Below are positions 7,291 through 50,388 of a stretch of 64,000 nucleotides of DNA, piece by piece. This DNA is from a virus (taxonomy: Duplodnaviria; Caudoviricetes): positions 1 to 64,000 of IMG/VR virus record IMGVR_UViG_3300036797_000015; one strand, given 5' to 3'. A model generated the notes under the pieces. It was given only the letters and a program-made list of their open reading frames with translations, was not told where the DNA came from and made no database searches. Each line of letters begins with the position of its first letter. Positions within the stretch are counted from its first letter, which is position 1. A program made the position numbers and the translations under genes.

Positions 7291-9224
7291 TGGCAAAGCG
7301 GTTGTGGTCGATGGGCCTTGGCACGGGTAAGTCTGGTACAGACGTTATCTGGGTGAAACAAAGCAATTATGACCCAGATGCGAATGCCTCTCTGAAAGCG
7401 AATCTGCCTGGCCCTGCTAGGTGGAACGGTGATGAGAAGCGTTTTGAGTTCCCAGTTCACTGGGACGCCTGTACTGGCGCTCGTCGGGTAGCTGACAAGT
7501 TCGATGTACTGCTGCGTATCGCGCCTAGCCTACGAGAGTGGGCTGAGGTTGAGAAAGCAAGGCAGGCAACCATTCCCGATGTTCAGTCGATGGAATTGGT
7601 TGACTTGCCAGCAGTGCGAGAAGGCTACCCTGCGCTTTGGGAGGCTATCACGTCCAGACCGTTCCAGACCGTGGGCGCTGCTTTTGCGGCGCGTAATCGT
7701 TCGTGTCTGATAGCGGACCAACCTGGACTTGGTAAGACTCTCCAGAGTATCGCGGCTGTGATTGAGTCTGGTAGAACCGGACCCATATTGGTAGTGGCCC
7801 CAAAATCCGCTGCCAAACTCACCTGGCCTCAGGAGTTAGCACGTTGGGTACCTGGCGATTTGGTTTATGTGCTTGGTAGCCATCTTAAAGCGGCCGAACG
7901 AGTGCAACTTGCCAAAGACTTCCGTACCGGATCTGGCAATGGGCACGGCCGTAAAGATGGCAAGCGTATTTGGCTTATCACTTCGCCGCACTATGTACGG
8001 ATACGAGCCGAGGTCGATGACTGGGGCAAGTATATGTACGAGAATGGCAAGAAGATCATCAATCCCGTTGGCGAGGCAGTAATGGAACTGTTCGACGTTA
8101 AATGGTCTGCGGTGATCGTTGATGAGTCGCACCAAACGCTAGCTGGTGCTAGGGGCAACAAAAAGAAACAGTCTTCTCAGCGTCTTGGGCTTGGAGCCTT
8201 AGACGTTATCGACGGAGGATTGCGGATTGCGTTGTCTGGAACACCGTTCAGAGGTAAGGAAGAATACCTCTGGGGCCAGCTCAACTGGTTACGCCCTGAT
8301 TTGTATCGTAGCTTCTGGCAGTGGATCAAAGATCACTTTGACTGCTACCAAGACAGGTACGGTATGACAATCGGCAGAATGGTGGACGCTGAGGGTATGT
8401 ATCGTGAAGCCAGCTCTGTGATGATTCGGCGCACGAAGGATGAGGTTGCTAAAGACTTGCCCGCCAAGCAGTACGGTGGGTGGCCTTTGGAAGCCGGCAA
8501 TCCCGAGTCGCCGATAGCTGTGTGGCTTGATATGGAACCGAAACAGGGTAAAGCCTACCGGGACATGGTCAAACACGCAGCCGCAGAGCTGGAGGGTGGT
8601 ACGCTACTGACGAACGGCATCCTGGCGGAGTTAACGCGCCTGAAGCAGTTTGCTGGTAGCTACGGCAAGCTTGAAGGTGATAAGTACGTTCCGATTCTGC
8701 CGTCCAATAAGTTTGACTGGACGGTAGAGTTTCTAGACGAGCGTGGCATCACCGACAAGTACGAGCCTGACGCGCCTAAAGTGGTGATAGCGTCTCAGTT
8801 CGCTCAGCTGATCAATTGCTTCGCTGGTGCCTTAAAGGATATGGGAATTGAAGCCCACGTCTTTACGGGAGCCACGAGCGACAAGGACAGAGAGCGGATA
8901 AAGGACGACTGGCAGAATAACCCTGAGAGTCATGTGAGGGTGCTTCTGCTTACTACAACCGCTGGCGGCGTGTCGCTGACTCTGGATGCTGCGGATGATC
9001 TAATCATTCTCGATGAGACGTGGAATACGTCTGATCAAGAGCAACTGGAGGATAGGCTCCACCGCCTGTCGCGTATGCACCAGGTGACAATCTGGAAAGT
9101 GTTTAGCCGCGATACAATTGAGGAATCAATCGCGGTTGCCAACCTAGGGAAGGAGTATAACATCAAGTCGATCATTGATGGCGAGCGAGGCATTCCGTTC
9201 GCTAAACAGATGGTTGGCGGATGA
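7290..9224 (+). CDS. SNF2-family (SF2) DNA helicase
   Basis: ADQPGLGKT (motif I), VIVDESHQ (DExH), LSGTP, C-terminal GGVSLTL and QLEDRLHR. Confidence 0.92.
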   Translation: MAKRLWSMGLGTGKSGTDVIWVKQSNYDPDANASLKANLPGPARWNGDEKRFEFPVHWDACTGARRVADKFDVLLRIAPSLREWAEVEKARQATIPDVQSMELVDLPAVREGYPALWEAITSRPFQTVGAAFAARNRSCLIADQPGLGKTLQSIAAVIESGRTGPILVVAPKSAAKLTWPQELARWVPGDLVYVLGSHLKAAERVQLAKDFRTGSGNGHGRKDGKRIWLITSPHYVRIRAEVDDWGKYMYENGKKIINPVGEAVMELFDVKWSAVIVDESHQTLAGARGNKKKQSSQRLGLGALDVIDGGLRIALSGTPFRGKEEYLWGQLNWLRPDLYRSFWQWIKDHFDCYQDRYGMTIGRMVDAEGMYREASSVMIRRTKDEVAKDLPAKQYGGWPLEAGNPESPIAVWLDMEPKQGKAYRDMVKHAAAELEGGTLLTNGILAELTRLKQFAGSYGKLEGDKYVPILPSNKFDWTVEFLDERGITDKYEPDAPKVVIASQFAQLINCFAGALKDMGIEAHVFTGATSDKDRERIKDDWQNNPESHVRVLLLTTTAGGVSLTLDAADDLIILDETWNTSDQEQLEDRLHRLSRMHQVTIWKVFSRDTIEESIAVANLGKEYNIKSIIDGERGIPFAKQMVGG

Positions 9225-34709: not shown

Positions 34710-34834
34710 TGTGGGCACAGGTATGGGACCATCCTGTAGTCAAGGATATGTGTAGGCCAAGGCGTGCTTATCGTGGCCCACGTAGACCATGGGCATACAA
34801 GACATGGAACAAAGTCAAGTGGGATCTGCCGTGA
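34706..34834 (+). CDS. Small basic Trp-rich peptide (42 aa)
   Basis: ATGA overlap upstream, GTGA overlap with TerS. Confidence 0.5.
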   Translation: MMWAQVWDHPVVKDMCRPRRAYRGPRRPWAYKTWNKVKWDLP

Positions 34835-35859
34835 CACTTAAACCATTCTTCCAGCAGGCCCAGCAGGAATATGAGCGTAAGCAGGAGCTTGCCAAATTGA
34901 CGCGCCAACAGGCGTTCGATCGTGGCCTGATTACAGTACAGGACCTGGACGACGAGGAACTGCGCGCAGGTAGGTGTCGCGACGAACTTGGCAGGATACC
35001 ACGTAACAAGAACAAGACCGAACCTGTACCACGCGACATACACGACGAGATCATCGCTGAGCACGAAGCACGCTGGAACCAGAACCTGCGTGAGAAGCTA
35101 GACACAATGACAGAGGTCATCGCTGGAGTGGCCCTGGATGATACAGCTGAACCACGTGACAGGATGGAAGCTGCTAAGTGGATCATTGAGCGCGTGGCGG
35201 GTAAAGCACCAGAGCGCGTAAATGTTACTGTTAACAAACTCCCGTGGGAAGAGATGATCCATGGTATCGCCAAACGTACCAAAGCGGAACACGATGCGCT
35301 CAAGGCTGGCACTATCGATGCGGAAGTGGTGGATGTACCTACTGGCGAAAGTGGGCCTGGAGGACTACAAGGGCCAGACGAGTTTGTACAACAAGAAGCA
35401 CAAGTAGCTGGTGAATCTGATGGACCCAACGGATCTGGTGGAGTGCCCAGATATGAGTTTGACCCCACTGATGGACCAGTGGATGATTATGTTCCCCCTG
35501 CGCACATCTACACGCAGGAAGTGCGTTACCCACACGCACCTCCGGCACCATCACAGCAGGTACCAGCAAACTCAATGTCGATAGCGCCTGGACCGCAGAT
35601 TGAGCGCCCAGAGACTTGGCCCGATGAAGGCACGAGTATGTCATGGGACGAGATTGATAGCAAGATCAGGGAACGTGCTGAGGGCCGCAAGCAAAAAGAC
35701 GACATCCGCAAGCAGGCCAAGAAGCGCAGAATTGTCAAGCGCACATTAGGCTATGACGCTATCCCTAACAATCTAACAGTGGCAGCCAACGAACATGAAC
35801 AAGACAACGGTCGCATCAAAGTCACATTCGACTTACAAAAGCGCGACGACGACGTGTGA
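34831..35859 (+). CDS. terS: Terminase small subunit with long disordered C-terminal extension
   Basis: DLDDEELRAGRCRDELGR and RMEAAKWIIERVAGK motifs; upstream of head module; alternative start 34789. Confidence 0.7.
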   Translation: MTLKPFFQQAQQEYERKQELAKLTRQQAFDRGLITVQDLDDEELRAGRCRDELGRIPRNKNKTEPVPRDIHDEIIAEHEARWNQNLREKLDTMTEVIAGVALDDTAEPRDRMEAAKWIIERVAGKAPERVNVTVNKLPWEEMIHGIAKRTKAEHDALKAGTIDAEVVDVPTGESGPGGLQGPDEFVQQEAQVAGESDGPNGSGGVPRYEFDPTDGPVDDYVPPAHIYTQEVRYPHAPPAPSQQVPANSMSIAPGPQIERPETWPDEGTSMSWDEIDSKIRERAEGRKQKDDIRKQAKKRRIVKRTLGYDAIPNNLTVAANEHEQDNGRIKVTFDLQKRDDDV

Positions 35860-35987: not shown

Positions 35988-36203
35988 GTGGCGCGCTCCC
36001 AACGAGTTAGGATGAAGCAAATGGCAAAGTGGCAGACTACGCCACGGAAGGCTCTACAGCCCATTCCGCGTGTGGTAGATAACACGGATCTGATTGGTAT
36101 TCGCCAGTGGATCCTTCAGGCCAGCAGAGTGCCGATCCGCAGTCAGGATATGCCTGGTGGACCTGGTACATTCTCGCCTTATGGCAACACGAACTTCCGC
36201 TAG
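35988..36203 (+). CDS. Small basic protein
   Basis: MARSQRVRMKQMAKW...; start uncertain. Confidence 0.55.
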   Translation: MARSQRVRMKQMAKWQTTPRKALQPIPRVVDNTDLIGIRQWILQASRVPIRSQDMPGGPGTFSPYGNTNFR

Positions 36204-36240
36204 GTCTGGCACCAATGTGTCTTGGACAATTGACGGAATC

Positions 36241-36540
36241 ATGCTCGCACTCGTGGTCCTATTGTGGCTATGGCTGCGCGACCAGTTTCACCACCAAAAC
36301 AGGAAGTTGGATCATATCATGACCGCTGTACAGGTTGAGCAGGAAGAGCTGGACACCGTAGCTGCCTCTGTTGAGGACATTGCTGTAGCGATCAGCAATC
36401 TCCCGCCTGAGTCACTGCCCGCTGGCGTGCTCGATGGCATCAACAAGAGTCTGGCAGACGCCCAGGCCGCAATCTCAGCCAAGACGCCAGAGGTACCTAC
36501 GCCTGTGGCAGATTCGCTGGCCAAGAAGCATCATGGCTAA
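36241..36540 (+). CDS. Membrane-anchored coiled-coil protein
   Basis: TM LALVVLLWLWL then acidic helix; start uncertain. Confidence 0.6.
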   Translation: MLALVVLLWLWLRDQFHHQNRKLDHIMTAVQVEQEELDTVAASVEDIAVAISNLPPESLPAGVLDGINKSLADAQAAISAKTPEVPTPVADSLAKKHHG

Positions 36541-36649
36541 GCCCAAACCGAAGCTGCCCAAGAAGGTGCTCAAGAAGGCCAAGCGCAATTTCAAGCGTTC
36601 TGGCTTGGGTGCTAAGGCGCAGCTCAAAGGCAAACAAAAGGCATACTGA
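36533..36649 (+). CDS. Lys-rich basic peptide (38 aa)
   Basis: MAKPKPKLPKKVLKKAKRNFKRSGLGAKAQLKGKQKAY: 13 K, 2 R, no acidic residues; coupled both sides. Confidence 0.7.
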   Translation: MAKPKPKLPKKVLKKAKRNFKRSGLGAKAQLKGKQKAY

Positions 36650-37167
36650 TGGCTAGGTCAGCAAAGCAGCGCGCACAGTCAAAGCTAAATGGCGCGAAGC
36701 ACAGAGGCCATACTGCCAAGCAATTTCGTGCTGTTGGCAATCAGCTTTCACAGCATGGTATGGGTAGCTCAGCCAAGCAGAGACGCAACACTGCTCGTTA
36801 CATGCGACCCAGTTTCGGTCCTGATGGTCGTATGACCCAAATCAATCGCACTCCTGAGCAACGTGCTGCTGGTGTTCATAGAGGTGCGAGTATGGGGCAC
36901 GTAACATTCCCTGTAGCTCGTGGAGCTAGTGAAGAGTTCCATGTTTACCACCAACCATTGTACGGTGGTAGCAAGAATGTGCGTGGCGTTTGGCAAGCAG
37001 GCTCAAAGACTTTGATGTCTAATGGGGCAGCTATACATAGTCGTGTCGGTGGCCCAACCACCAGTAGACGTGGCGCAGAAATGATAGCACGTAACGCGGC
37101 TGCAGCAAGCAAAGCTGCTGCTTCGCATATCAATGATGCTAAGCGTGCTGGGATTAGGGGCAGATGA
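36649..37167 (+). CDS. Basic low-complexity protein
   Basis: TGATG coupling; R/K/A/G/S rich. Confidence 0.75.
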   Translation: MARSAKQRAQSKLNGAKHRGHTAKQFRAVGNQLSQHGMGSSAKQRRNTARYMRPSFGPDGRMTQINRTPEQRAAGVHRGASMGHVTFPVARGASEEFHVYHQPLYGGSKNVRGVWQAGSKTLMSNGAAIHSRVGGPTTSRRGAEMIARNAAAASKAAASHINDAKRAGIRGR

Positions 37168-37442
37168 TGGCCAAGAAGACAAAGAACTTTCGCAACGTAA
37201 TTGGTGGGCAGAGTCCTGCTGGTGTAGGTGCCACAGCCGGTCTGAACCGTAACCCGTTTGGCAAATACGGCAAGACCAAATACCCGCAGAACCAGGGCAC
37301 AACTGGGCGTAGTGCGCGCAAACCGCAGGTGCCAGCGCCGACAGATGGCTATGGTATCAAGGTACAGAAGGCAAATACCAAGTCTGCGGTGACTATGGGC
37401 ACACCCAAGATGCGTACACTCGACAAAGAGCTGGGGTGCTGA
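37164..37442 (+). CDS. Basic low-complexity protein
   Basis: ATGA overlap; K/G/T/P rich. Confidence 0.75.
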   Translation: MMAKKTKNFRNVIGGQSPAGVGATAGLNRNPFGKYGKTKYPQNQGTTGRSARKPQVPAPTDGYGIKVQKANTKSAVTMGTPKMRTLDKELGC

Positions 37443-37443
37443 A

Positions 37444-37653
37444 ATGGGCCTACCAAAGCCAAAGAAGCTGAGCAGCTCAGTGGACGATGCTGTAGCTCGG
37501 GCGCTAGCGCGTGGCGGGAAGCGTAACCCAAACGCAAATACGGTGCCTGCCGGCAAGATGTGGAACAACTTCAATGAGCTTAGTGGGTTTCGTGGCCCCA
37601 GCAAGCCAAAGAAGCCGCACACGAATCTGAATGGTAGGCCGATCAATGGCTAA
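37444..37653 (+). CDS. Basic low-complexity protein
   Basis: GGAGCTGGGG-type SD region upstream; K/P/N/G rich. Confidence 0.7.
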   Translation: MGLPKPKKLSSSVDDAVARALARGGKRNPNANTVPAGKMWNNFNELSGFRGPSKPKKPHTNLNGRPING

Positions 37654-38014
37654 GTTTACCAAGCAGTTCAACAAGGAGCTGGACAAGCAGACCAAAGGCG
37701 TATCTGGCAGCCAGTATCTGCTTGGCGCTAGTACAAGCGTTGGTAAGCAGACGTTCATCCCTTCAATGAGCAACAACTTTGAAGAGAACATCGTTGAGGG
37801 CTTGGAGAAGCTACAGGGCACGAAGCCCAAACTGATGAAGGCAGGCGGTAACAAACACCTGTCTGCGCCAAAGACCAAAGCTAACAAGATGGTTACGCCA
37901 GCGACACATACGCAGAATAATGTATCGATGGTTGGGGACAACGTGAAAGTGAAGACCCCAAGATCAGGCGTTGGTAGAATTTTTAGACGAGGCACTCACG
38001 GGAGGTTCGCATAA
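37646..38014 (+). CDS. Basic low-complexity protein
   Basis: Overlaps upstream stop; K/G/T/N rich. Confidence 0.75.
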   Translation: MAKFTKQFNKELDKQTKGVSGSQYLLGASTSVGKQTFIPSMSNNFEENIVEGLEKLQGTKPKLMKAGGNKHLSAPKTKANKMVTPATHTQNNVSMVGDNVKVKTPRSGVGRIFRRGTHGRFA

Positions 38015-38430
38015 TGGCACGTGGAGGATCTGGTGGTCGCCGAGGTGGCGGTCGCGGGCGTGGTAACGGTAGTACCGCTGCTGGCGGTGCTGCGGGCTTT
38101 CCAGCTGGAGCGCAGGGCACGCGGACTAGCTTCGCTCAGTCTGGCGGCAAAGCAAACAGCTTCCAGGGTGGTAAGGGCGGTGGTGCGTGGCAGTCGCCTG
38201 GAGGTGGCGCTAAGGGCACCAAAACCAAGGGCAAGTCTCAGTTTGGCAACTCTACGCCATTTAACATCCGCAATGCGGGTGGGGATGGTACGCTAATCCC
38301 AGGTGCGCACGGAGGCGCTGGGCGTTTGAATCTGCCAGGCAGTAACGCCAAGGGTAACAAGGGCAGGACGAACACCAGTATCGTCAAGCCTCACCAGTTG
38401 GCGCCCAAAGGATTTGGTGGTGGCTACTAA
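38014..38430 (+). CDS. Gly-rich RGG/FG basic protein
   Basis: GGAGG SD, TAATG coupling; one acidic residue in 138 aa. Confidence 0.8.
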   Translation: MARGGSGGRRGGGRGRGNGSTAAGGAAGFPAGAQGTRTSFAQSGGKANSFQGGKGGGAWQSPGGGAKGTKTKGKSQFGNSTPFNIRNAGGDGTLIPGAHGGAGRLNLPGSNAKGNKGRTNTSIVKPHQLAPKGFGGGY

Positions 38431-38795
38431 TGGCGCGCAATCGCAGCATGGGCTTTAGCAAAAAGGGCACTGGCACGCCGAGCCGTTTGGGTGGTAGGAT
38501 AGCACGACGTATCCTCAACCCTTGGGGCGACAATATGCGCCAGGGTCGACTTGCGCCATTGACTGGTACGACTACCGCACGTAACCGCGCATCTGGTAGC
38601 TCACGTAAAGCTCAGCAGATTGACCCCAGTCGTCTGAGCATGAGTTATCCTGCCAATGACCCGGCGCAGTGGCCTGTTATCCCTGACCCCACTACTGGGC
38701 GACGTGGTAACCCAAGTACAAATACGCAGGCGAAAGCAGACCGGAACAATGCGGCGGTGAACCACGCGTATCTGCGCACTACTGGTCTGAGCTAG
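38430..38795 (+). CDS. Arg-rich low-complexity protein
   Basis: TAATG coupling; R/T/P/G rich. Confidence 0.75.
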   Translation: MARNRSMGFSKKGTGTPSRLGGRIARRILNPWGDNMRQGRLAPLTGTTTARNRASGSSRKAQQIDPSRLSMSYPANDPAQWPVIPDPTTGRRGNPSTNTQAKADRNNAAVNHAYLRTTGLS

Positions 38796-38811: not shown

Positions 38812-40059
38812 GTGTCACGCACTTACATACGCGACTGGCGGGGCAGATTCGCCCGCACAGGTTCTGTTCGTGTTCGTAAGGTCCACAGGCCCACAGTACG
38901 CAAGCCTAAACTGCGCAGGCCTAGCTTTGAACCAGGCATCATCCAGATTGGGCGCACCAAAGACCCGCTGACCTGGGACCAGATTAAGGGCACAAACGCA
39001 AAGCGCGATGGGCGAATACTCTGGCGTCTCAAGAAGGACGGCGACATCCAGACTGAGGACGAGTTTGTCAAGAAGGCAGACCAGCTTCACAGGTTGTATC
39101 GAAAGGCGCACCCCAATGACAAGAACTTCGCCACCAAGAACTCAATTTGTAACGCAGCCTTACGGCAGGAATTTGACGAAACGGGCAAAGTCAAGCCTTT
39201 ACCAGTACCTGGCCACACTGAAAAAGCAGGACCAAGCACTCCTGCACCCAAAAAAGAAGTAGGCAAGACGCCAGGCGGCATGAAACTGCTGGAGAAGTAC
39301 AAGCCAGACCCCAAAAAGAAGTACCACATATTCGGCAAGAACCACCCGCTTGACTCGGATCTGGACTACAAGAAGGCGCAAGACGAGGGTGACAAGGCCG
39401 AGATTGCTTTCTTGAAGGGTAAGGTCAAGTATTATCGTGCTCAGCAGCGAGATAAGCGATCTGCACATACGGCTCCATACGGTGCGTACATAAAAGATGT
39501 TGAAGAGCGCATAGACGAGCTTGAGAACCCAGAACTACACACTGACAAAGAGTTTCTGGAGGGTTTGTATGGTAAAGACGACCCCAAAGAGCAGGCCGCA
39601 CGCGAAAAGGCCAGGCAGGAACGCATAGCGAAGCGTGAAGCCAAGCGTTTGGGCGAGATCACTTACAAGAACCAGCCTGCCTTTGAGATACGCACTCGTG
39701 TTCGCCAGCTAACCAAAGAGCTTGGCGATAGTATGGACGGCTTTTTCAAGTATGCACAAAAGCTTGAGGCCAAAGACCCCAATTTCGACATGTCCCCAGA
39801 CTACATTAAGCGTCGGCACGATATCCGCCAGCGCAATGACCAGATTATGGGTGACCTTGGGCGGCTTGAGCAAAAGCTGAATACCATGGAGCCAGATACG
39901 AGCGAGAGTATCAAGGACGCAAAAGACATTGCGGACCTTATACGCATTATGCAGAACCGCCACCCCAGCGTAGACGTGTCCACTGACTTTGTGACTAGCA
40001 TTCCTGCGGCTAAAGCTGAGTTCATGAGCAAGTACAAATACGATGTTACTCGTGTATAG
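38812..40059 (+). CDS. Head-module protein with N-terminal RDWRGRF motif
   Basis: 415 aa; basic N-terminus, charged helical body; TAG stop is in frame with the next ORF. Confidence 0.75.
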   Translation: MSRTYIRDWRGRFARTGSVRVRKVHRPTVRKPKLRRPSFEPGIIQIGRTKDPLTWDQIKGTNAKRDGRILWRLKKDGDIQTEDEFVKKADQLHRLYRKAHPNDKNFATKNSICNAALRQEFDETGKVKPLPVPGHTEKAGPSTPAPKKEVGKTPGGMKLLEKYKPDPKKKYHIFGKNHPLDSDLDYKKAQDEGDKAEIAFLKGKVKYYRAQQRDKRSAHTAPYGAYIKDVEERIDELENPELHTDKEFLEGLYGKDDPKEQAAREKARQERIAKREAKRLGEITYKNQPAFEIRTRVRQLTKELGDSMDGFFKYAQKLEAKDPNFDMSPDYIKRRHDIRQRNDQIMGDLGRLEQKLNTMEPDTSESIKDAKDIADLIRIMQNRHPSVDVSTDFVTSIPAAKAEFMSKYKYDVTRV

Positions 40060-40065
40060 CGTATC

Positions 40066-40749
40066 ATGCATAATGACGACTCAATTTTGGCTGCCATGAA
40101 GGGCAGTTTCGCTGGTATCGAACAGCAGATGGACCGGTACCCCAAACTGAAGATCGACGCGATCACTGATCAGGTTGGCGCTACTAACCAAATAGAGAAG
40201 ACACGCGTGGGCGCTAGCTGTAGTCGTGGCTTTACCATTAAGCTGAATGTTAACCCGTTCGCAGTAGCAAATCCAAAGCGTGTACACGATAACACTGCTA
40301 ACAATGACCAAACGCACTGGCACCCATATGGAACGGAAGCGAATGTGTACCAGTTCAATACCATACACGAGTTTGGCCACGCAGTCGATTGGCGCGCCTT
40401 TGTCTGGGAGCAGGACAAGAAAGATGGCTATCTGGATATAGATAAGAACAACCAGAAGCGACATGCTGCTATTATGAAGGTGTTGTACAAAGAATACTCT
40501 GATGCCAATGATGGCAATAAACCTAGTGGTGAAAATGAATTGCTTGTTTGGATAAAAGCCAAAAAGCAGGTTAGCGCGTATTCTTGGGAACGTAATGACA
40601 AAGGTGAGCTAACGGGGCAGCTACAGGACGACGAGTTGCTAGCTGAAGCGTGGGGTGCGTGCGAGTTTGGGGCAGGTAGGCCAACGAAAGTGGAATTGGC
40701 CTTACACAACCTTATGTGGGAGGGGCTGAAGAAGCATGGACTTACTTGA
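40066..40749 (+). CDS. Zincin-type metallopeptidase domain
   Basis: TIHEFGHAV (HExxH) and downstream YS...ELLAEAW; no SD; same frame as 38812-40059. Confidence 0.75.
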   Translation: MHNDDSILAAMKGSFAGIEQQMDRYPKLKIDAITDQVGATNQIEKTRVGASCSRGFTIKLNVNPFAVANPKRVHDNTANNDQTHWHPYGTEANVYQFNTIHEFGHAVDWRAFVWEQDKKDGYLDIDKNNQKRHAAIMKVLYKEYSDANDGNKPSGENELLVWIKAKKQVSAYSWERNDKGELTGQLQDDELLAEAWGACEFGAGRPTKVELALHNLMWEGLKKHGLT

Positions 40750-40930
40750 GCGATATGAAGCTGCTATGGCCAGCCCCAGCCCAGACATAGAAACGCACCA
40801 AGGCTTTAACATGAATACTGTCTGCGCGATGACCAAAGCCAAATACGACCCAACGGCTGAGAATCTGGCGGCAGCGCGTAAGGCTATACAAGACCAGATT
40901 GATGGCGTGGACCCGTATGAGTTTGAATAA
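40736..40930 (+). CDS. Small acidic protein
   Basis: Overlaps the peptidase end and the TerL start. Confidence 0.65.
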   Translation: MDLLERYEAAMASPSPDIETHQGFNMNTVCAMTKAKYDPTAENLAAARKAIQDQIDGVDPYEFE

Positions 40931-42557
40931 CCACGTCCTGCTTGACCCATGGGACATCTACGAGTCTGAGCACGTAGATTGGCACCCACACCCGGGCCAG
41001 GTACATGTTCTTGACTCCCCAGCGCGACACCGAGTATGGTGCGCTGGACGACGTACAGGGAAGTCTGAGCTAGGTGGGCATATCCTACTGCCGGAGGTAT
41101 TCTACACAAAGTCGGTGGCCGAGGAATGGCGCAAGAAGGGCAAACGTCGTGAGTTCTGGATAGTAGGAGATGAATATGTTACTGCCGATAAGGAGTTTCG
41201 CGTTATCTGGAACCTCGTTAAGCATCTTGGAATCCCCATGGATTCAGGGTCCCACCACTCTATCGATGGTAGAAGCCAGGGCGTGCTCTCACTCTGGGAT
41301 AACGCCTTCATGGTCACCACTCAGTCAGCGAAGTATCCTGAGAACCTGGTCGGTGAGGCACTCTGCGGGGTGCTGATGGTTGAGGCAGCTAAGAGTAAGC
41401 CATCAACGTGGCAGAAGTATGTTCGCCCAATGCTCAACGACTATAAGGGCTGGAGCATACACACGTCCACCCCAGAAGGCAAGAACCACTTCTGGGAGAA
41501 GTACAATATGGGGCAGGACCCATACCAGCCAGATTGGGCATCATGGAGAATGCCTGCTTGGCGTAATCCATTTGTCTACACGGAGACCACAAACGACCAG
41601 CACGTCAAATTCCTACTCGACCAACTTGAGACACACGCAGGTACGAGCGCGGCGAAGATAGCTGCTGTCAACGGTCTACAGATTGACCCTGAGATTTTGT
41701 CCCTTGCGGACGAACTAACCATCGAACTCTTCAAACAAGAGGTGTTCGCAGACTTTACCGAGTTTGTAGGGCAGGTGTTCAAAGACTATGATGAAGAATA
41801 TCATGTCAGTGACCTTGAGTTCAACCCCGACTGGCTCACGTTTGCTGCTGTTGACTACGGATTTACCAATCCCAACGTTTGGCTACTCATTCAGGTGGGT
41901 CCCTGGGGTGAGATTAACGTGCTGGATGAGATCTACGAGCCAGGACTCACAGCGGATCAATTTGCTGAGGAAATTAAACGACGAGGCCTCAACCCTCCGC
42001 AGCTCAGAGTATTCTATCCCGACCCAGCTGACCCAATGTCAAGTCAAACACTCCAGGATAAACTGAAAGTTGCCTCGATGGGAGGCACTGGCGGGGAATT
42101 GAATGTGCGTATCAATTTGATCCGCGCTGCGCTTCGTGAAGGTCGTCGTGATTACGGTGCCTTGACAGATTCAAACGCAGAGGTATGGCGTCCGCGCCTT
42201 CAGTTCAACAGGCGTTGTATCCATACGCGTGAGGATATGATGGCGTACCGTTATCCTGAGCGTAAGGAAGACCAAGAGACCAGCGTTCCACGTATGGAAC
42301 TGCCAATGAAGAAGGACGATCATGGGCCTGAAGCTCTGGGCAGGTTTATGGTTGGCTACTTTGGGCCTGCCTCTCTTCTTGGTGCGGGTGGTACCAGAGT
42401 TACCAGAGCGAACATGGGCCGCCACACTCGTTCCCGCGCTAATGCTCAGCGTGGTAAGCCTATTAGTGCTATGCGGCCCACCCCGCGAGGTTACCCAGAC
42501 TGGAAAGACAAACTACAGCCGGGTGCGTACGGCATTGTCACGAATGAGGAGTGGTAG
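40917..42557 (+). CDS. terL: Terminase large subunit
   Basis: AGRRTGKS Walker A, LMVEAAK Walker B-like, STPEGKNHF, AAVDYGFTNP RNaseH nuclease, DDHGPEAL. Confidence 0.93.
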   Translation: MSLNNHVLLDPWDIYESEHVDWHPHPGQVHVLDSPARHRVWCAGRRTGKSELGGHILLPEVFYTKSVAEEWRKKGKRREFWIVGDEYVTADKEFRVIWNLVKHLGIPMDSGSHHSIDGRSQGVLSLWDNAFMVTTQSAKYPENLVGEALCGVLMVEAAKSKPSTWQKYVRPMLNDYKGWSIHTSTPEGKNHFWEKYNMGQDPYQPDWASWRMPAWRNPFVYTETTNDQHVKFLLDQLETHAGTSAAKIAAVNGLQIDPEILSLADELTIELFKQEVFADFTEFVGQVFKDYDEEYHVSDLEFNPDWLTFAAVDYGFTNPNVWLLIQVGPWGEINVLDEIYEPGLTADQFAEEIKRRGLNPPQLRVFYPDPADPMSSQTLQDKLKVASMGGTGGELNVRINLIRAALREGRRDYGALTDSNAEVWRPRLQFNRRCIHTREDMMAYRYPERKEDQETSVPRMELPMKKDDHGPEALGRFMVGYFGPASLLGAGGTRVTRANMGRHTRSRANAQRGKPISAMRPTPRGYPDWKDKLQPGAYGIVTNEEW

Positions 42558-44217: not shown

Positions 44218-44952
44218 ATGGCAATCCATGTAGTGATCCACGAAGTAAAGGACCCACGTCTCAAGAGGTTCGTTGAACACGACGACCGTAGCCGGGCATT
44301 TGCTTTTGAGGAAACCACTGAAGACCGCACCATCTTTTGGGATGACGCTGCGCCTATCCTAGACCAGAAGCAAGTTGGTGGGTGTGTAGGTTTCACTGGT
44401 GCGGATTTGTTCAACACGGCCATGTTCGCGCCACTCCGTAAGGCTAAGAACGGTGGTCAATTCTTCAACAACAAGGATGGCATGTTCTTTTACTCGCAGG
44501 CCACCAAGAATGACAACGTCAAAGGCGTCTACCCGCCAGATGACACTGGCTCGTCGGGTCTGGGGCTTGCCAAGGCACTCAAGAAGCTTGGTGATTGTGA
44601 TGGCTACAAGCACTGCTTCTCGTGGAATAGCTATCTGAATGCTATCCAGACTCAGCCGGTCGCGGTTGGTACGCTTTGGACAAACTCGATGTTCAATCCA
44701 GACCACAATGGCGTGCTACACGTAGGTGCGTTGACAGATAGCAATATCGCCGGCGGGCACGAGTACATGATTCGCGGTCGCAATGCTGACACGCACTTGA
44801 ATTTGATGCGCAACCACTGGAATGCTTCGTGGTCGCCTAGCAAGAATGGCCCGAAAGTGCCAGGTGAGGCTTGGATCACCGACGACGACCTCAAACTGCT
44901 TTTGAAGAACCAAGGTGATGTAACAGTGATACATGGAAGTGGGTTGCCCTGA
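44218..44952 (+). CDS. Papain-like (C1-type) cysteine protease
   Basis: DQKQVGGCVGF (Gln..Cys), GGHEY (His), RNHWNASW (Asn). Confidence 0.85.
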   Translation: MAIHVVIHEVKDPRLKRFVEHDDRSRAFAFEETTEDRTIFWDDAAPILDQKQVGGCVGFTGADLFNTAMFAPLRKAKNGGQFFNNKDGMFFYSQATKNDNVKGVYPPDDTGSSGLGLAKALKKLGDCDGYKHCFSWNSYLNAIQTQPVAVGTLWTNSMFNPDHNGVLHVGALTDSNIAGGHEYMIRGRNADTHLNLMRNHWNASWSPSKNGPKVPGEAWITDDDLKLLLKNQGDVTVIHGSGLP

Positions 44953-45131
44953 TGGCTCCGTTAGTTGTTGGTATTATTCTGCTGGTTTTGATCTATGTGC
45001 TACCAGTTCCGTATGTGTTATGGCTGATCGGCATGATCGTTGGCATCGTGCTTATCCTGTATGGGCTTTGGGTGCTGTTCAATGGCTACCGCTCGCGTGG
45101 TGTCGGGCCGTCAGGCAGGAGATGGTGGTAG
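44952..45131 (+). CDS. Two-TM small membrane protein (59 aa, not in ORF track)
   Basis: TGATG coupling; MAPLVVGIILLVLIYVLPVPYVLWLIGMIVGIVLILYGLWVLFNGYRSRG... Confidence 0.7.
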   Translation: MAPLVVGIILLVLIYVLPVPYVLWLIGMIVGIVLILYGLWVLFNGYRSRGVGPSGRRWW

Positions 45132-45404
45132 ATGCGGAAGAAGCATGGGCGACATTATCCACCTGGAGTCATACCGGGCCAGCCGGCAGCCGGGCACAAA
45201 GCGTTTGCGTCCAAAGCCCAGCAAAGGTTGTTCTTCGCTAACCCAAAACTTAGGCGTTGGGCCTTGGGCAAAGCACATGCCACAGGCGAACACCACGAAC
45301 TTGGCAAAGCCAGCGCAGCACGGTATCGTGCTTTACCTGACCGCAAGGGAAGCACTTATAAACGAGTGCCCCTCCACCCTGCGCTTAAGGGCAGACGAGC
45401 TTAA
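45132..45404 (+). CDS. Small basic protein
   Basis: FASKAQQRLFFA...LRRWA; R/K/H rich; coupled to JAB gene. Confidence 0.7.
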   Translation: MRKKHGRHYPPGVIPGQPAAGHKAFASKAQQRLFFANPKLRRWALGKAHATGEHHELGKASAARYRALPDRKGSTYKRVPLHPALKGRRA

Positions 45405-47486: not shown

Positions 47487-47927
47487 ATGGCCCGGTATGA
47501 CAAGTATGATCCGATTAATGGTGGTTTCCGTGCTGCCATTGCTGCAGATTTCCCTGATGACCATCTTGGGAAAGTCTACGGAGTTGGCCTAGACTCTACT
47601 GGCAAGATCGTGTTCGGTGGAGGCCAATCAGGCATCCTCGGTCTGTTGGTCGTGACCCAGAAGCCTGGCCGAGTTGGTCCCAACAAGGAAGTTGCTATAT
47701 TGGATGTGATGCGTAGTGGTTGCATCACCGACTTTGGCCCTACGGCCGGCAACCCTGGTGTTGACTTTGGTGTCGCTGGCACCAAGTACTTCGCTAACTC
47801 GTCTACTGGCGTTGTCAGTGCCACTCCCGCAGTCGGTTCTGTCCTCGTCGGTGCTACTGTCGAGCCTGATAGGCTGGAAGTCAACGTCGTGCAGAACCCC
47901 CTGATCACGGGCCAGTACGGTCTGTAA
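47487..47927 (+). CDS. Capsid decoration/cement-like protein
   Basis: MARYDKYDP N-terminus; Gly/Val-rich beta protein between scaffold and MCP. Confidence 0.6.
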   Translation: MARYDKYDPINGGFRAAIAADFPDDHLGKVYGVGLDSTGKIVFGGGQSGILGLLVVTQKPGRVGPNKEVAILDVMRSGCITDFGPTAGNPGVDFGVAGTKYFANSSTGVVSATPAVGSVLVGATVEPDRLEVNVVQNPLITGQYGL

Positions 47928-47957: not shown

Positions 47958-49178
47958 ATGAAGTTGTATACGCCCGGCATCGAGCGGGAAAAGCAGTTTC
48001 TAGCCCAACAGTTCATGAAGTCTTTGAACTTGGGTGGAGGCGCTGGTAACCGCTCGGGCTACATGACTGAGGGTGATATCCTCACCCATACCATTGATGG
48101 TGTCGACCTGAATATGCTTTGGGCCGAGTTCATCGATGCGAACACGATCTACAATGAGCACAAGCAGGGTATGGTTGGCCTGCTTACCTACCCGGTTCTG
48201 TCTGACATCGAACTTGTCCCGCAGATTGGCGACTTCAATTTCGAGGAAGCCACGGAGTTTGGTATCCCGCGTGGGCAGAACACGAATATCAGCTACTACC
48301 AGCTGGCATACGCCTACAAGGATTACGACCTCAAGCTCGGCTACACGTGGAAGTTCCTGCGTGACTCCCCGGCCCAGCAGGTGGAAGCGATCCATACCAA
48401 GGCGATCCAGGCTGACCAGGCGCTGGTGTTCCGCAAGGTGATGGAGGCTCTGTTTGATAACAGGGACCGCCAGACCATCATCAATTCGCTGACATACAAT
48501 GTCTACCCGTTGGCGAACGCGGATGGTTGGGTACCTCCCACTTACAAGGGCACGGCGTTCGATGGTACGCATAACCACTACCTCGTGAGTGGCGCGGCGA
48601 CTGTCGACTCTGACGACTTTGAGACTTGCGTGAACCACCTTACCGAGCATGGTTATGGTTGGGACACAGGCACTCAGATCGTATGCTTTGCGAACCGTGC
48701 GGAGATCAACTACATCCGTAAGTTCCGGTTTGGACAGACCAACCAGAACAGCGCGGTTGCCAATTACGACTTCATCCCGGCTCTTGGTCAGCCTGCGCTG
48801 ATCGTGCCTAACGCTGAAGGTCTGTTGGGCGGCCAGGCACCTGGAGTTTGGAACGGTCTGCGCGTTTCCGGCTCATACATGGACGTAATTGTCATCGAGG
48901 AGCCACTGCTCCCCGCTGGCTATCTGCTTTTCATGTCGACAGGTGGCGCGAATGCTGACGAGAACATCGTCGGTGTCCGTGAGCACGCTTCGCCAGACTG
49001 GCGGGGTCTGAAGTTGCTGCCGGGTAACCAGCAGCGTTATCCGTTGATCGATGGCTACTACGTCCACGGCTTTGGGACTGGTATCCGTCGTCGCACCGGT
49101 GCTGTCGTTATGCAAGTCAAGGCGTCTGGTTCATACGTGTCGCCGACAGCGTACACGAATGACGGGAGCACTCGATGA
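47958..49178 (+). CDS. Major capsid protein
   Basis: 406 aa, AAGGA SD, position in the head module, C-biased third codon positions suggesting high expression. Confidence 0.8.
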   Translation: MKLYTPGIEREKQFLAQQFMKSLNLGGGAGNRSGYMTEGDILTHTIDGVDLNMLWAEFIDANTIYNEHKQGMVGLLTYPVLSDIELVPQIGDFNFEEATEFGIPRGQNTNISYYQLAYAYKDYDLKLGYTWKFLRDSPAQQVEAIHTKAIQADQALVFRKVMEALFDNRDRQTIINSLTYNVYPLANADGWVPPTYKGTAFDGTHNHYLVSGAATVDSDDFETCVNHLTEHGYGWDTGTQIVCFANRAEINYIRKFRFGQTNQNSAVANYDFIPALGQPALIVPNAEGLLGGQAPGVWNGLRVSGSYMDVIVIEEPLLPAGYLLFMSTGGANADENIVGVREHASPDWRGLKLLPGNQQRYPLIDGYYVHGFGTGIRRRTGAVVMQVKASGSYVSPTAYTNDGSTR

Positions 49179-49613: not shown

Positions 49614-49994
49614 TTGGCTACCCAGCAGCAGATCGACCTTGTCAAGATGAATCTGCCTTCATGGTGGAGCACTCTTGCTGACTGGGACGATGCCAAAGTC
49701 ATTGCGGTTATTGACGCATACAATGGCAACGTCAACCAGTCGATCAGGCAGTTCTGGTACGATCGTGTAGCCTATACACAGCCGCTGGTCGATAGTAGCG
49801 AATCTGGTGGTTCTGCACCACTAAGCCAGGACCACGAATCTGCGGAGCGAATGCTCAAGTATTGGGATCAGCAGATTGCGCAGTCTTCAACTAGCGGTAC
49901 AATCAAGATCAAGCGCAGGTACCGCCGTTGTCGCGGTAATGTGATCGTGCCGGACATTTACGGTTACGGGAGCCCATATGCCCGCACCGACTAG
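49614..49994 (+). CDS. Head-tail adaptor
   Basis: AAGGAG SD before TTG; size and position. Confidence 0.6.
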   Translation: MATQQQIDLVKMNLPSWWSTLADWDDAKVIAVIDAYNGNVNQSIRQFWYDRVAYTQPLVDSSESGGSAPLSQDHESAERMLKYWDQQIAQSSTSGTIKIKRRYRRCRGNVIVPDIYGYGSPYARTD

Positions 49995-50388
49995 TCTTGA
50001 AGACATCAAGCTCAATGAGATGCGTTGGAACACGCAGGAGTTCATCAAGCGCGACCCCACAGTAGTCACGCTTATTCCAACGCGTGGTGCGCCTATAGCA
50101 AAGCCGGGTGGAGGCCACGACTTTGGTACTCCTGTACCCAAGCCGGAACAGGTCTTCAGGCTTATCTCACAGTCTAATTTTGACGGAGTAGAGCTTAGCC
50201 CGAACGACGACGGCACATCCCGCAAATTCGGCTATCTCGTCGTGGGAGCCTATGACGCCGACATCAGTATCGGGGATACCTGGGACGAGGGCGACCGTCA
50301 TTACCATATAGACAGCATATCCGTGTATAATGGATATGAAGTGCGGGCTACCGCTACAGCATTCGCATCGGACCCGATCCATGGCTAA
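49978..50388 (+). CDS. Head-to-tail stopper
   Basis: Position; DADISIGDTW segment. Confidence 0.6.
   Translation: MPAPTSLEDIKLNEMRWNTQEFIKRDPTVVTLIPTRGAPIAKPGGGHDFGTPVPKPEQVFRLISQSNFDGVELSPNDDGTSRKFGYLVVGAYDADISIGDTWDEGDRHYHIDSISVYNGYEVRATATAFASDPIHG

Follow-up and report, generated by a model that had tools for sequence, protein, structure and literature searches.

Small basic, predicted disordered proteins encoded beside a gp4-type capsid accessory gene in an uncultured relative of phage Onyinye

INTRODUCTION

What would a tailed phage do with a run of small, strongly basic proteins encoded between its TerS and TerL genes? The question is raised by positions 35988-38795 of the 64-kb window analyzed here (the whole stretch of DNA under study), which belongs to IMG/VR virus record IMGVR_UViG_3300036797_000015. 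A preliminary description of the window had noticed about eight very basic, low-complexity proteins at these positions, had likened them to protamine-type core proteins, and had suggested that they might be part of the virion. In the usual picture of a tailed phage, the DNA is packed naked and the shell, together with a few ordered decoration proteins, determines how much the head can contain, and we know of no description of a "protamine-like" multiprotein solution in this group of viruses.

RESULTS

Nine coupled genes fill the first part of the TerS-TerL interval

The window covers 64 kb of a 73,825-bp record that is rated complete by CheckV and that was found in one sequencing run only, a soil metagenome, and in no RNA run. 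All of its convincing genes lie on the + strand, and the source virus, uncultured and from soil, is related to Mycobacterium phage Onyinye. The TerS-TerL interval contains twelve genes. The first nine (a1 to a9) are coupled + strand genes that fill 35988-38795, and three more (38812-40930) separate this array from TerL. Each of the eight open reading frames (ORFs) named in the preliminary description was present on the + strand with the N terminus given there, although a ninth gene, a2, encoding a protein with an isoelectric point (pI) of 6.0, lies between the first and second of them. The flanking genes were likewise as described. In the features below, lengths are in amino acids (aa).

34789..35859, + strand: TerS, left boundary; matches phrog_10899 (E = 4.1e-26), with homologues in all relatives
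35988..36203, + strand: a1, gp4-type capsid accessory protein, family A1; GTG-start ORF (MARS) with homology to gp4
36181..36540, + strand: a2, near-neutral protein; the listed ORF begins at TTG 36094; best coding frame
36533..36649, + strand: a3, 38 aa, Lys-rich, starts MAKP; called from its ORF, composition, and best coding frame
36649..37167, + strand: a4, 172 aa, basic, starts MARS; pI 12.0, net charge +24; best coding frame
37167..37442, + strand: a5, family A5, basic (M/MAKK; start 37164/37167); pI 10.6, net charge +14; in 8/8 genomes
37444..37653, + strand: a6, 69 aa, basic, lineage specific, starts MGLP; pI 11.5; best coding frame
37646..38014, + strand: a7, 122 aa, basic, starts MAKF, C terminus ...GTHGRFA; homologue in locus L004
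38014..38430, + strand: a8, 138 aa, family A8, Gly-rich, starts MARG; in 8/8 genomes
38430..38795, + strand: a9, family A9, starts MARN; in 8/8 genomes
38812..40059, + strand: 415-aa basic protein; tblastn matches to Onyinye gp16 and to 1077-aa proteins of L009 and L006
40066..40749, + strand: HExxH zincin-like protein; phrog_7153 zinc-finger protease (E = 3.9e-4), HEFGH in the translation
40736..40930, + strand: 64-aa acidic protein, called from its ORF
40899..42557, + strand: TerL, right boundary; 66% identical to Onyinye TerL; phrog_2

When + strand ORFs were chosen greedily across the window, the high-pI proteins clustered in the array, and the few high-pI ORFs flagged elsewhere look like wrong-frame ORFs. 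No DNA-level repetition was found among the array genes, as the preliminary description had stated, and the array region had no match in an Rfam scan or in a blastn search of 50,697 phage records. No + strand terminator-like site was found between 33.3 and 43 kb, so that no such site separates the array from TerS or TerL, and cotranscription of TerS, the array, and TerL is likely.

The array ORFs behave as genes with a conserved core

Codon-usage log-odds were trained on twelve confident window genes and used to score all six frames. Each of a1 to a9 scored best in its annotated frame, at 0.19 to 0.43 bits per codon (TerS, 0.31), with the tiny a3 at 0.43. Two antisense ORFs of 233 and 163 aa had negative scores and were rejected as genes.

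Using the TerL protein, we retrieved 19 related IMG/VR loci. Six of these cover the whole TerS-TerL interval, as does Onyinye, and together with the window they make up the eight genomes compared here. The synteny in relatives to which the preliminary description had looked was found, with families A1, A5, A8, and A9 in the same order in 8/8 genomes. Pairwise ratios of nonsynonymous to synonymous substitution rates (dN/dS) were 0.11 to 0.39 for A1, A8, and A9, the three families tested (A1, 0.11 to 0.32; A8, 0.16 to 0.39), with dS saturated. At the level of sequence, these data show that the array genes are real and conserved and that A1, A8, and A9 are under purifying selection.

The genes between these core families (a3, a4, a6, and a7) have few or no detectable homologues. 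Homologues of a2 were detected in L004 and L016, and one of a7 was detected in L004. No a6 homologue was found among the relatives' loci at an E value of 1e-3, and no a3 homologue was detectable among them, although similar tiny Lys-rich genes are present in the relatives' arrays. Regardless of this accessory turnover, each genome holds 5 to 8 basic genes in the interval. Judged by these comparisons, the array seems to combine a conserved core with accessory members that turn over fast. Among the array proteins of the window itself, no paralogy was detected at an E value of 1e-3.

Wider searches placed the core families in a narrow group of phages. A8 is represented by 97 clusters in a set of 5.8 billion proteins, none of them functionally named ("hypothetical protein" or blank), and A8-bearing contigs reach 71 to 76 kb; longer, fused forms of A8 were searched for and none was found. 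A9 has 49 representatives among 1.84 billion proteins. One A9 search match (P0144) was a spurious repeat protein and was set aside, as was P0146, in which the N-terminal part of A9 runs into TerL, probably through a gene-call or assembly artifact. By tblastn, the only cultivated phages with a1/a9 matches were Onyinye, Leopard, and Aikoy. Pfam and PHROG scans assigned no family to any array protein; Pfam gave no support to ribosomal-protein-like and DUF3008-like identities, which had been considered as candidates. PDB sequence and profile searches with A1, A8, and A9 gave chance-level matches only. As far as these homology searches reach, A5, A8, and A9 are confined to the Onyinye-like clade; they represent undescribed families of a kind that is known but uncharacterized.

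The first array gene encodes a gp4-like capsid accessory protein

Patience and Adjutor have supersized T=7 capsids in which the hexamers are split and the resulting chasm is filled by gp4. This protein is a random coil when free, as measured by circular dichroism, and helical in the capsid, where it is ordered as a dimer; its gene lies beside a TerS-like gene, and the icosahedral shell model consists only of the major capsid protein (MCP), the minor capsid protein, and gp4 (Podgorski et al. 2025, PMC11965321).

Several observations link a1 to this protein. The probable true start of a1 is ATG 36012/36021 (MAKWQ), as in the relatives, which gives a protein of ~60 aa. Across seven uncultured genomes the A1 family is 63 to 82% identical, and a1 is 58% identical to Onyinye gp5; the first array protein is well conserved rather than low complexity. 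When the A1 family was compared with gp4 using hhalign, it matched Adjutor/Chill gp4 with an E value of 0.0034 and Patience gp4 with an E value of 0.0022, in an alignment that covers a "PIPR..DN[ST]" core. An iterative A1 hidden Markov model (HMM), run over 4,935 six-frame ORFs, gained in order Fowlmouth gp121 (E = 0.016), Chill gp4 (E = 0.0013), and Hawkeye gp6 (E = 4e-6), the last of which is annotated as "capsid accessory protein," and then Send513 gp2 and a protein of Nocardia phage P3.1. Patience gp4 was missed by this HMM and was matched by hhalign alone. All of the HMM matches are small genes directly 3' of TerS in their own genomes. Although each step of this chain is weak, the shared synteny makes chance unlikely, and we therefore read a1, on this weak but consistent relation, as the gp4 orthologue and as a new addition to an already known family. 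The sequence of Chill gp4 is that of PDB 8SAJ chain Y (54 residues), whose molecule name in the sequence file, "HNH endonuclease," looks like a labeling slip.

The likeness between a1 and gp4 extends to a C-terminal "G.T..F[RK]" tail in addition to the core, to small size (60 aa versus 54 to 102 aa), to basic character, and to a place just 3' of TerS in genomes whose MCP and trimeric minor capsid protein belong to the same families. In contrast, the similarity is weak, at an E value of ~1e-3 per step via intermediates; the "MPGGPGTF" segment of A1 is without a counterpart in Adjutor gp4; and the likeness is limited to a1 and does not cover a3 to a9. The window genes for the two capsid proteins are as follows.

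47487..47927, + strand: trimeric minor capsid protein; 52% identical to Chill gp16, "minor capsid protein"
47958..49178, + strand: Patience-like MCP; 54% identical to Cluster D

With the MCPs of Cluster D, the cluster of Adjutor, the window MCP shares ~54% identity, and with those of Send513 and Fowlmouth it shares 50 to 53%. Protein comparison thus shows that the capsid family of the window, MCP and trimeric minor capsid protein together, matches the Patience/Adjutor type. The Patience capsid protein is cut between "...VVQ" and "IG", and counterparts of this site are found in the window MCP, at residues ~75 to 95 ("...VPQ|IGD"), and in the Chill MCP ("...VPR|IGQ"), which suggests that the window MCP undergoes the same maturation cut. 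In the Cluster D phage Chill, a TerS-like gene is followed by three small genes including gp4 and by genes for a 565-aa basic protein, a VIP2-like ADP-ribosyltransferase, and TerL. In gene order, the Chill layout is the window layout in miniature.

The remaining array proteins are basic, predicted to be disordered, and conserved at short motifs

From a3 onward (36533-38795), the array proteins have pIs of 10.5 to 12.0, net charges of +10 to +24, and few acidic residues, in line with the very basic character originally ascribed to the whole set. The composition figures given at that time also hold, with 15 Lys/Arg and no Asp/Glu among the 38 aa of a3 and one acidic residue in the 138-aa, Gly-rich a8 (42 Gly). 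The near-neutral a2 (pI 6.0 for the 148-aa ORF) has a hydrophobic N terminus and a helical, acidic C-terminal part. The term protamine-like suits a3, which is 39% Lys/Arg and ends in Tyr, but not a4 to a9, in which Lys/Arg account for only 14 to 19% of residues and motifs rather than charge are conserved. Put differently, a3 is the only one of a3 to a9 to reach the Lys/Arg content (~30% or more, with little else conserved) of protamine-type proteins. Condensation of DNA in the manner of protamines is doubtful for most of the array proteins.

Conservation in the core families is concentrated in islands of aromatic residues, Pro, and Gly rather than in charge. A5 retains "N.YGI[KT]"; A8 retains "AQSGG....F", "GGD", and a C-terminal "GFGG", with a8 itself ending in "GFGGGY"; and A9 retains "LNPWG", "YP.NDP..WP", and a C-terminal helix. 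Since these motifs are kept rather than charge, they point to docking on a folded partner. In a8, an RGG-type N-terminal stretch of ~17 residues is accompanied by a few F-G pairs, and the L004 homologue is without the RGG stretch; no repeats of RGG/FG type were found in the other array proteins.

In a charge-hydropathy plot, a3 to a9 fell in the disordered region, whereas TerL, portal, and MCP lay outside it and a1 was borderline. AlphaFold2, run with a 46-sequence A9 alignment, assigned secondary structure to none of the residues before residue 66; it placed a helix at residues 100 to 118, with coil elsewhere, and the predicted template modeling score was 0.25. The ESM Atlas model of a8 had a mean predicted local distance difference test (pLDDT) value of 0.22, and the Atlas offered no usable feature match for a8. 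Taken together, these models predict that a3 to a9 are intrinsically disordered.

A further motif, "[RK]D..G[RK]FA", closes a7 and opens the 415-aa protein, its homologues, and large ADP-ribosyltransferase proteins; it also opens two small basic proteins encoded after the portal gene of Nocardia phage P3.1. The sites are at 38830 and 37988 in the window, at 12295-12865 in L002, and at 5657 in L001. From its distribution, this motif may be a shared docking or targeting peptide.

Comparable basic proteins are present in Patience virions

The preliminary description had known of no such array in a siphovirus head module, but Patience has one, not discussed as a basic-protein set in the paper that reports its proteome (PMC4324244). 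On the basis of mass spectrometry, that paper lists all of Patience gp111, gp10 to gp15, gp17, and gp18 as virion proteins; gp15 likely ranks in the top three virion proteins by abundance, and the products of all "inserted" head-operon genes, gp9 excepted, are found in particles (Pope et al. 2014, PMC4324244). In our analysis, the genes for these nine proteins sit between the portal and protease genes, the pI of the products is ~12 wherever it was computed, and an N-terminal module rich in Ala, Lys, and Gln, "..[ST]A[KR]Q[KR]AA...(N)L.KAR", is common to most of them. We also observed that Patience gp11 to gp18 form a paralogous array with the module "..RRAALKKAQ.ASA.KRR", followed in several by a hydrophobic segment (L028, 7300-9000; L031, 31-2075). 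The published papers do not discuss this paralogy or module.

An HMM of the module, built from Patience, Send513, Hawkeye, and Chill, matched proteins encoded in the arrays of L011 (E = 8e-7), Onyinye (gp7 and gp10), and L021 and no window array ORF at E < 10; a4 has only three short degenerate [ST]AKQ motifs (residues 4, 22, and 41). The window does encode one homologue of a Patience basic protein, which lies outside the array.

45132..45404, + strand: very basic 90-aa protein of the Patience gp10/Onyinye gp22 family; BLASTP matches to Onyinye gp22 (E = 3e-16) and to Patience gp10 (E = 2e-5), the latter listed among virion proteins from mass spectrometry

Thus, the array resembles the Patience set in that small proteins of pI ~12 are encoded in a row within the head-assembly operon, in phages that share a capsid family, with the N-terminal module present in array proteins of Onyinye, L011, and L021 and a gp10 homologue present in the window. 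The two sets differ in that the Patience genes lie between portal and protease rather than between TerS and TerL and in that Patience gp10 to gp18 are paralogous to each other, several with a hydrophobic segment, and are not homologous to A5, A8, and A9. No homologues of A5, A8, or A9 were detected in Patience, Chill, Hawkeye, Send513, Fowlmouth, or P3.1, and a literature search found no proteome paper for the Onyinye group. By analogy with the Patience proteomics, we infer that a3 to a9 are present in particles. The earlier suggestion that the array encodes virion proteins is therefore supported indirectly, through the homology of a1 to gp4, the Patience mass spectrometry list, and the module shared with relatives' arrays, rather than directly.

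Neighboring genes and variants in relatives

The 415-aa protein's N-terminal domain is common to ADP-ribosyltransferase proteins of 1,077 to 1,340 aa in relatives (ADPrib_exo_Tox). Polyvalent proteins of this kind have been proposed to be head-packaged and delivered effectors (PMC5512222). No description of basic-protein arrays was found in that paper or in a literature search on protamine-like phage proteins. Two further sets of window genes have counterparts in the relatives' intervals.

49614-49994 and 49978-50388: two genes between the capsid and tail genes, phrog_5274 and phrog_4904
44952..45131: 59-aa two-helix membrane peptide, encoded between the peptidase and the gp10-type basic protein

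In Onyinye, the sole copy of phrog_4904 (the whole genome was searched) lies in the TerS-TerL interval directly behind A9, and in L009, L011, and L021 homologues of both phrog_5274 and phrog_4904 lie right after A9; the relocated stretches include L001, 4813-5615, and L009, 5475-6371. Since homologues of capsid-to-tail genes sit there in relatives, the TerS-TerL interval is a morphogenesis segment. The placement itself looks like relocation of morphogenesis genes within one clade. The membrane peptide weakly resembles Onyinye gp6 (pairwise E = 0.002), which is itself encoded inside the Onyinye TerS-TerL array.

Some relatives carry Ig-like additions. At the a2 position, L014 (5964-6797) encodes an acidic protein that has a linker rich in Pro and Thr and ends in an IPT/TIG domain (Pfam E = 1.2e-14), which suggests, from its domain content, a surface-exposed particle protein encoded beside gp4. 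The A9 member P0139 (L023, 219-932) has a Pro/Gln-rich linker and a C-terminal, beta-rich domain of ~100 aa that a protein language model placed near phage Ig_J/fn3 domains (score, 0.95). Pfam and PDB searches gave nothing significant for this FN3-like domain, and a single-sequence AlphaFold2 model was uninformative (pLDDT, 39). We treat the resemblance to FN3/Ig_J, which comes from the language-model score alone, as a lead rather than a finding.

Small acidic proteins with pIs of 4.1 to 4.5 are interleaved in relatives' arrays. One family of them (pI ~4.5; L004, 6805-7116; L014, 8669-9025; L016, 3401-3682) shares a "PDM.GGP"-like stretch with the "DMPGGPG" of A1. L014 also has an HNH/HTH endonuclease-like gene (8220-8684) inside its basic-protein array, probably a mobile homing element.

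DISCUSSION

Our preferred reading, to which we give a probability of about one in two, is that A5, A8, and A9, and with them a3 to a9, are capsid-docked basic disordered proteins that face the DNA. The most economical explanation of the array would then be a lineage-specific expansion of small basic disordered particle proteins that accompany Patience-like capsids. In such a scheme, the array proteins would be expressed together with the head-assembly genes and become part of the particle. a1 would be unfolded when free and ordered in the chasm of the split capsid hexamers, and a3 to a9 would dock, like gp4, on a folded capsid component through their short aromatic/Pro/Gly motifs and the C-terminal helix of a9. 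Their variable Lys/Arg/Gly/Ser-rich linkers would lie against the packaged DNA as tethered counter-ions, helping a shell of fixed size to hold ~74 kb. For a3 to a9, the docking partner, the location on the inner face, and the contact with DNA are things that we only infer.

The docking model fits because motifs, not charge, are conserved. It also fits because the gp4 of this clade is short (60 aa) while the clade genomes, at 71 to 76 kb, exceed the 70.5 kb of Patience. In addition, seven phages of the capsid family show a rough trend for longer genomes to encode a greater load of small basic head-module proteins (Spearman rho, ~0.75, calculated by hand), with summed loads of 215 aa in Chill (64.5 kb), 289 aa in Hawkeye (67.4 kb), 801 aa in Patience (70.5 kb), and 901 aa in the window (73.8 kb).

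Several points weigh against capsid-docked proteins of this kind. The trend of load with genome length has n = 7, ignores kinship, and has Fowlmouth as an outlier. Here, a3 to a9 are known from their genes alone, and since A5, A8, and A9 have no homologues in Patience, Cluster D, Send513, or Fowlmouth, the proteomic analogy draws on composition, position, and a module that is nonsignificant in a4. The Ig-like additions (the IPT/TIG domain in L014 and the possible FN3-like domain on an A9 member) are typical of exposed virion proteins and so argue against an interior location for those members at least. Finally, the net charge density of 0.12 to 0.15 is, a3 excepted, far below that of true DNA-condensing proteins. 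A more ambitious proposal, in which a set of disordered polycations, supplied as separate proteins and anchored to the inner wall through short motifs, neutralizes and organizes the DNA, so that the same T=7 shell holds ~10 to 15% more genome than that of Adjutor, with proteins that might leave with the DNA, strikes us as doubtful.

Tethered polycationic arms are known from PhiX174 protein J, adenovirus mu and VII, and the C-terminal domain of the hepatitis B virus core protein. If our model holds, the array proteins would resemble such arms in combining a basic segment on nucleic acid with a short aromatic anchor on the capsid (the Tyr end of a3 and the "GFGGGY" of a8). They differ in having no homology to them, in belonging to a tailed phage with double-stranded DNA and motor-driven packaging, and in the Lys/Arg content of only 14 to 19% in a4 to a9. 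Phage T4, in turn, has several small basic internal proteins (IPI, IPII, and IPIII) that are folded, packed with the DNA, and delivered on infection. The array proteins could likewise be free internal cargo that is packed into the prohead and later ejected along with the DNA, as are T4 IPI to IPIII or crAss-like cargo, to coat or protect the incoming genome or to act with effector-like neighbors. The likeness lies in several small basic proteins possibly packed with DNA, with the same delivery if they are cargo; the array, however, lacks a shared capsid-targeting leader or sequence relation and is predicted to be disordered, whereas the T4 proteins fold. We consider cargo unlikely, even though the array adjoins the zincin and the 415-aa protein, whose N-terminal domain also heads the large ADP-ribosyltransferase proteins of relatives, a7 ends in the G[RK]F motif that opens the 415-aa and ADP-ribosyltransferase proteins, and polyvalent proteins have been proposed to be packaged in heads (PMC5512222). 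Unfolded chains rich in small residues could perhaps traverse the tail tube, and the Patience basic proteins are in particles yet not among the modeled icosahedral shell proteins. On the other hand, no leader or cleavage motif apart from "MA[RK]" is common to a3 to a9, the MCP-type "...VPQ|IG" site does not recur in the array, and the Pfam, PHROG, and PDB searches revealed no homology to known internal or ejection proteins. Moreover, the conserved docking-type motifs suggest a fixed partner, and the Ig-like additions in family members are ill suited to passage through a tail.

The array proteins might instead stay out of the particle and act late as nucleic-acid-binding or condensate helpers, that is, as packaging or assembly chaperones, as charge partners of the acidic proteins in relatives' arrays, or as binders of the host nucleoid or RNA. 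The position between TerS and TerL with likely cotranscription, the RGG-type N terminus of a8, the disorder-type composition of the array proteins, and the fact that A5, A8, and A9 are known from genes alone are all compatible with such a role, and the small acidic proteins that relatives interleave with the basic ones are what would be expected of coacervate or chaperone pairs. We nonetheless hold this role to be improbable: the interval also encodes a structural gp4 and, in relatives, homologues of capsid-to-tail genes, the comparable "inserted" genes of Patience are all particle associated except gp9, and members of the array families bear Ig-like domains, a common feature of virion proteins. 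A purely structural role outside the shell, as exposed reinforcing or decoration proteins that thread between capsomers like gp4 and have no part in handling DNA, appears to us very unlikely. It would account for the Ig-like additions in relatives, it has a parallel in the long Gly/Ala/Ser/Asn/Pro-rich extension by which Patience gp4 threads between capsid subunits, and separate reinforcing proteins would fit a clade with a short gp4 and a genome larger than that of Patience. Against it, seven proteins would need seven sites on a T=7 shell already occupied by gp4 and a trimeric decoration protein, there would be no explanation for the strongly basic character, and the accessory members turn over quickly.

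Work on Patience and Adjutor has shown that a disordered protein can tune capsid capacity (PMC11965321). The role of the many small basic proteins in Patience particles has never been addressed, and the clade described here offers a compact, conserved set, with three core families and fast-changing extras beside a gp4 homologue. Since the cultivated phage Onyinye grows on Mycobacterium smegmatis, it provides a workable system for examining whether siphovirus heads use disordered polycations as structural or as DNA-handling components. Even if the array proteins are merely minor particle proteins, a likely role would still be assigned to several "hypothetical" actinophage families.

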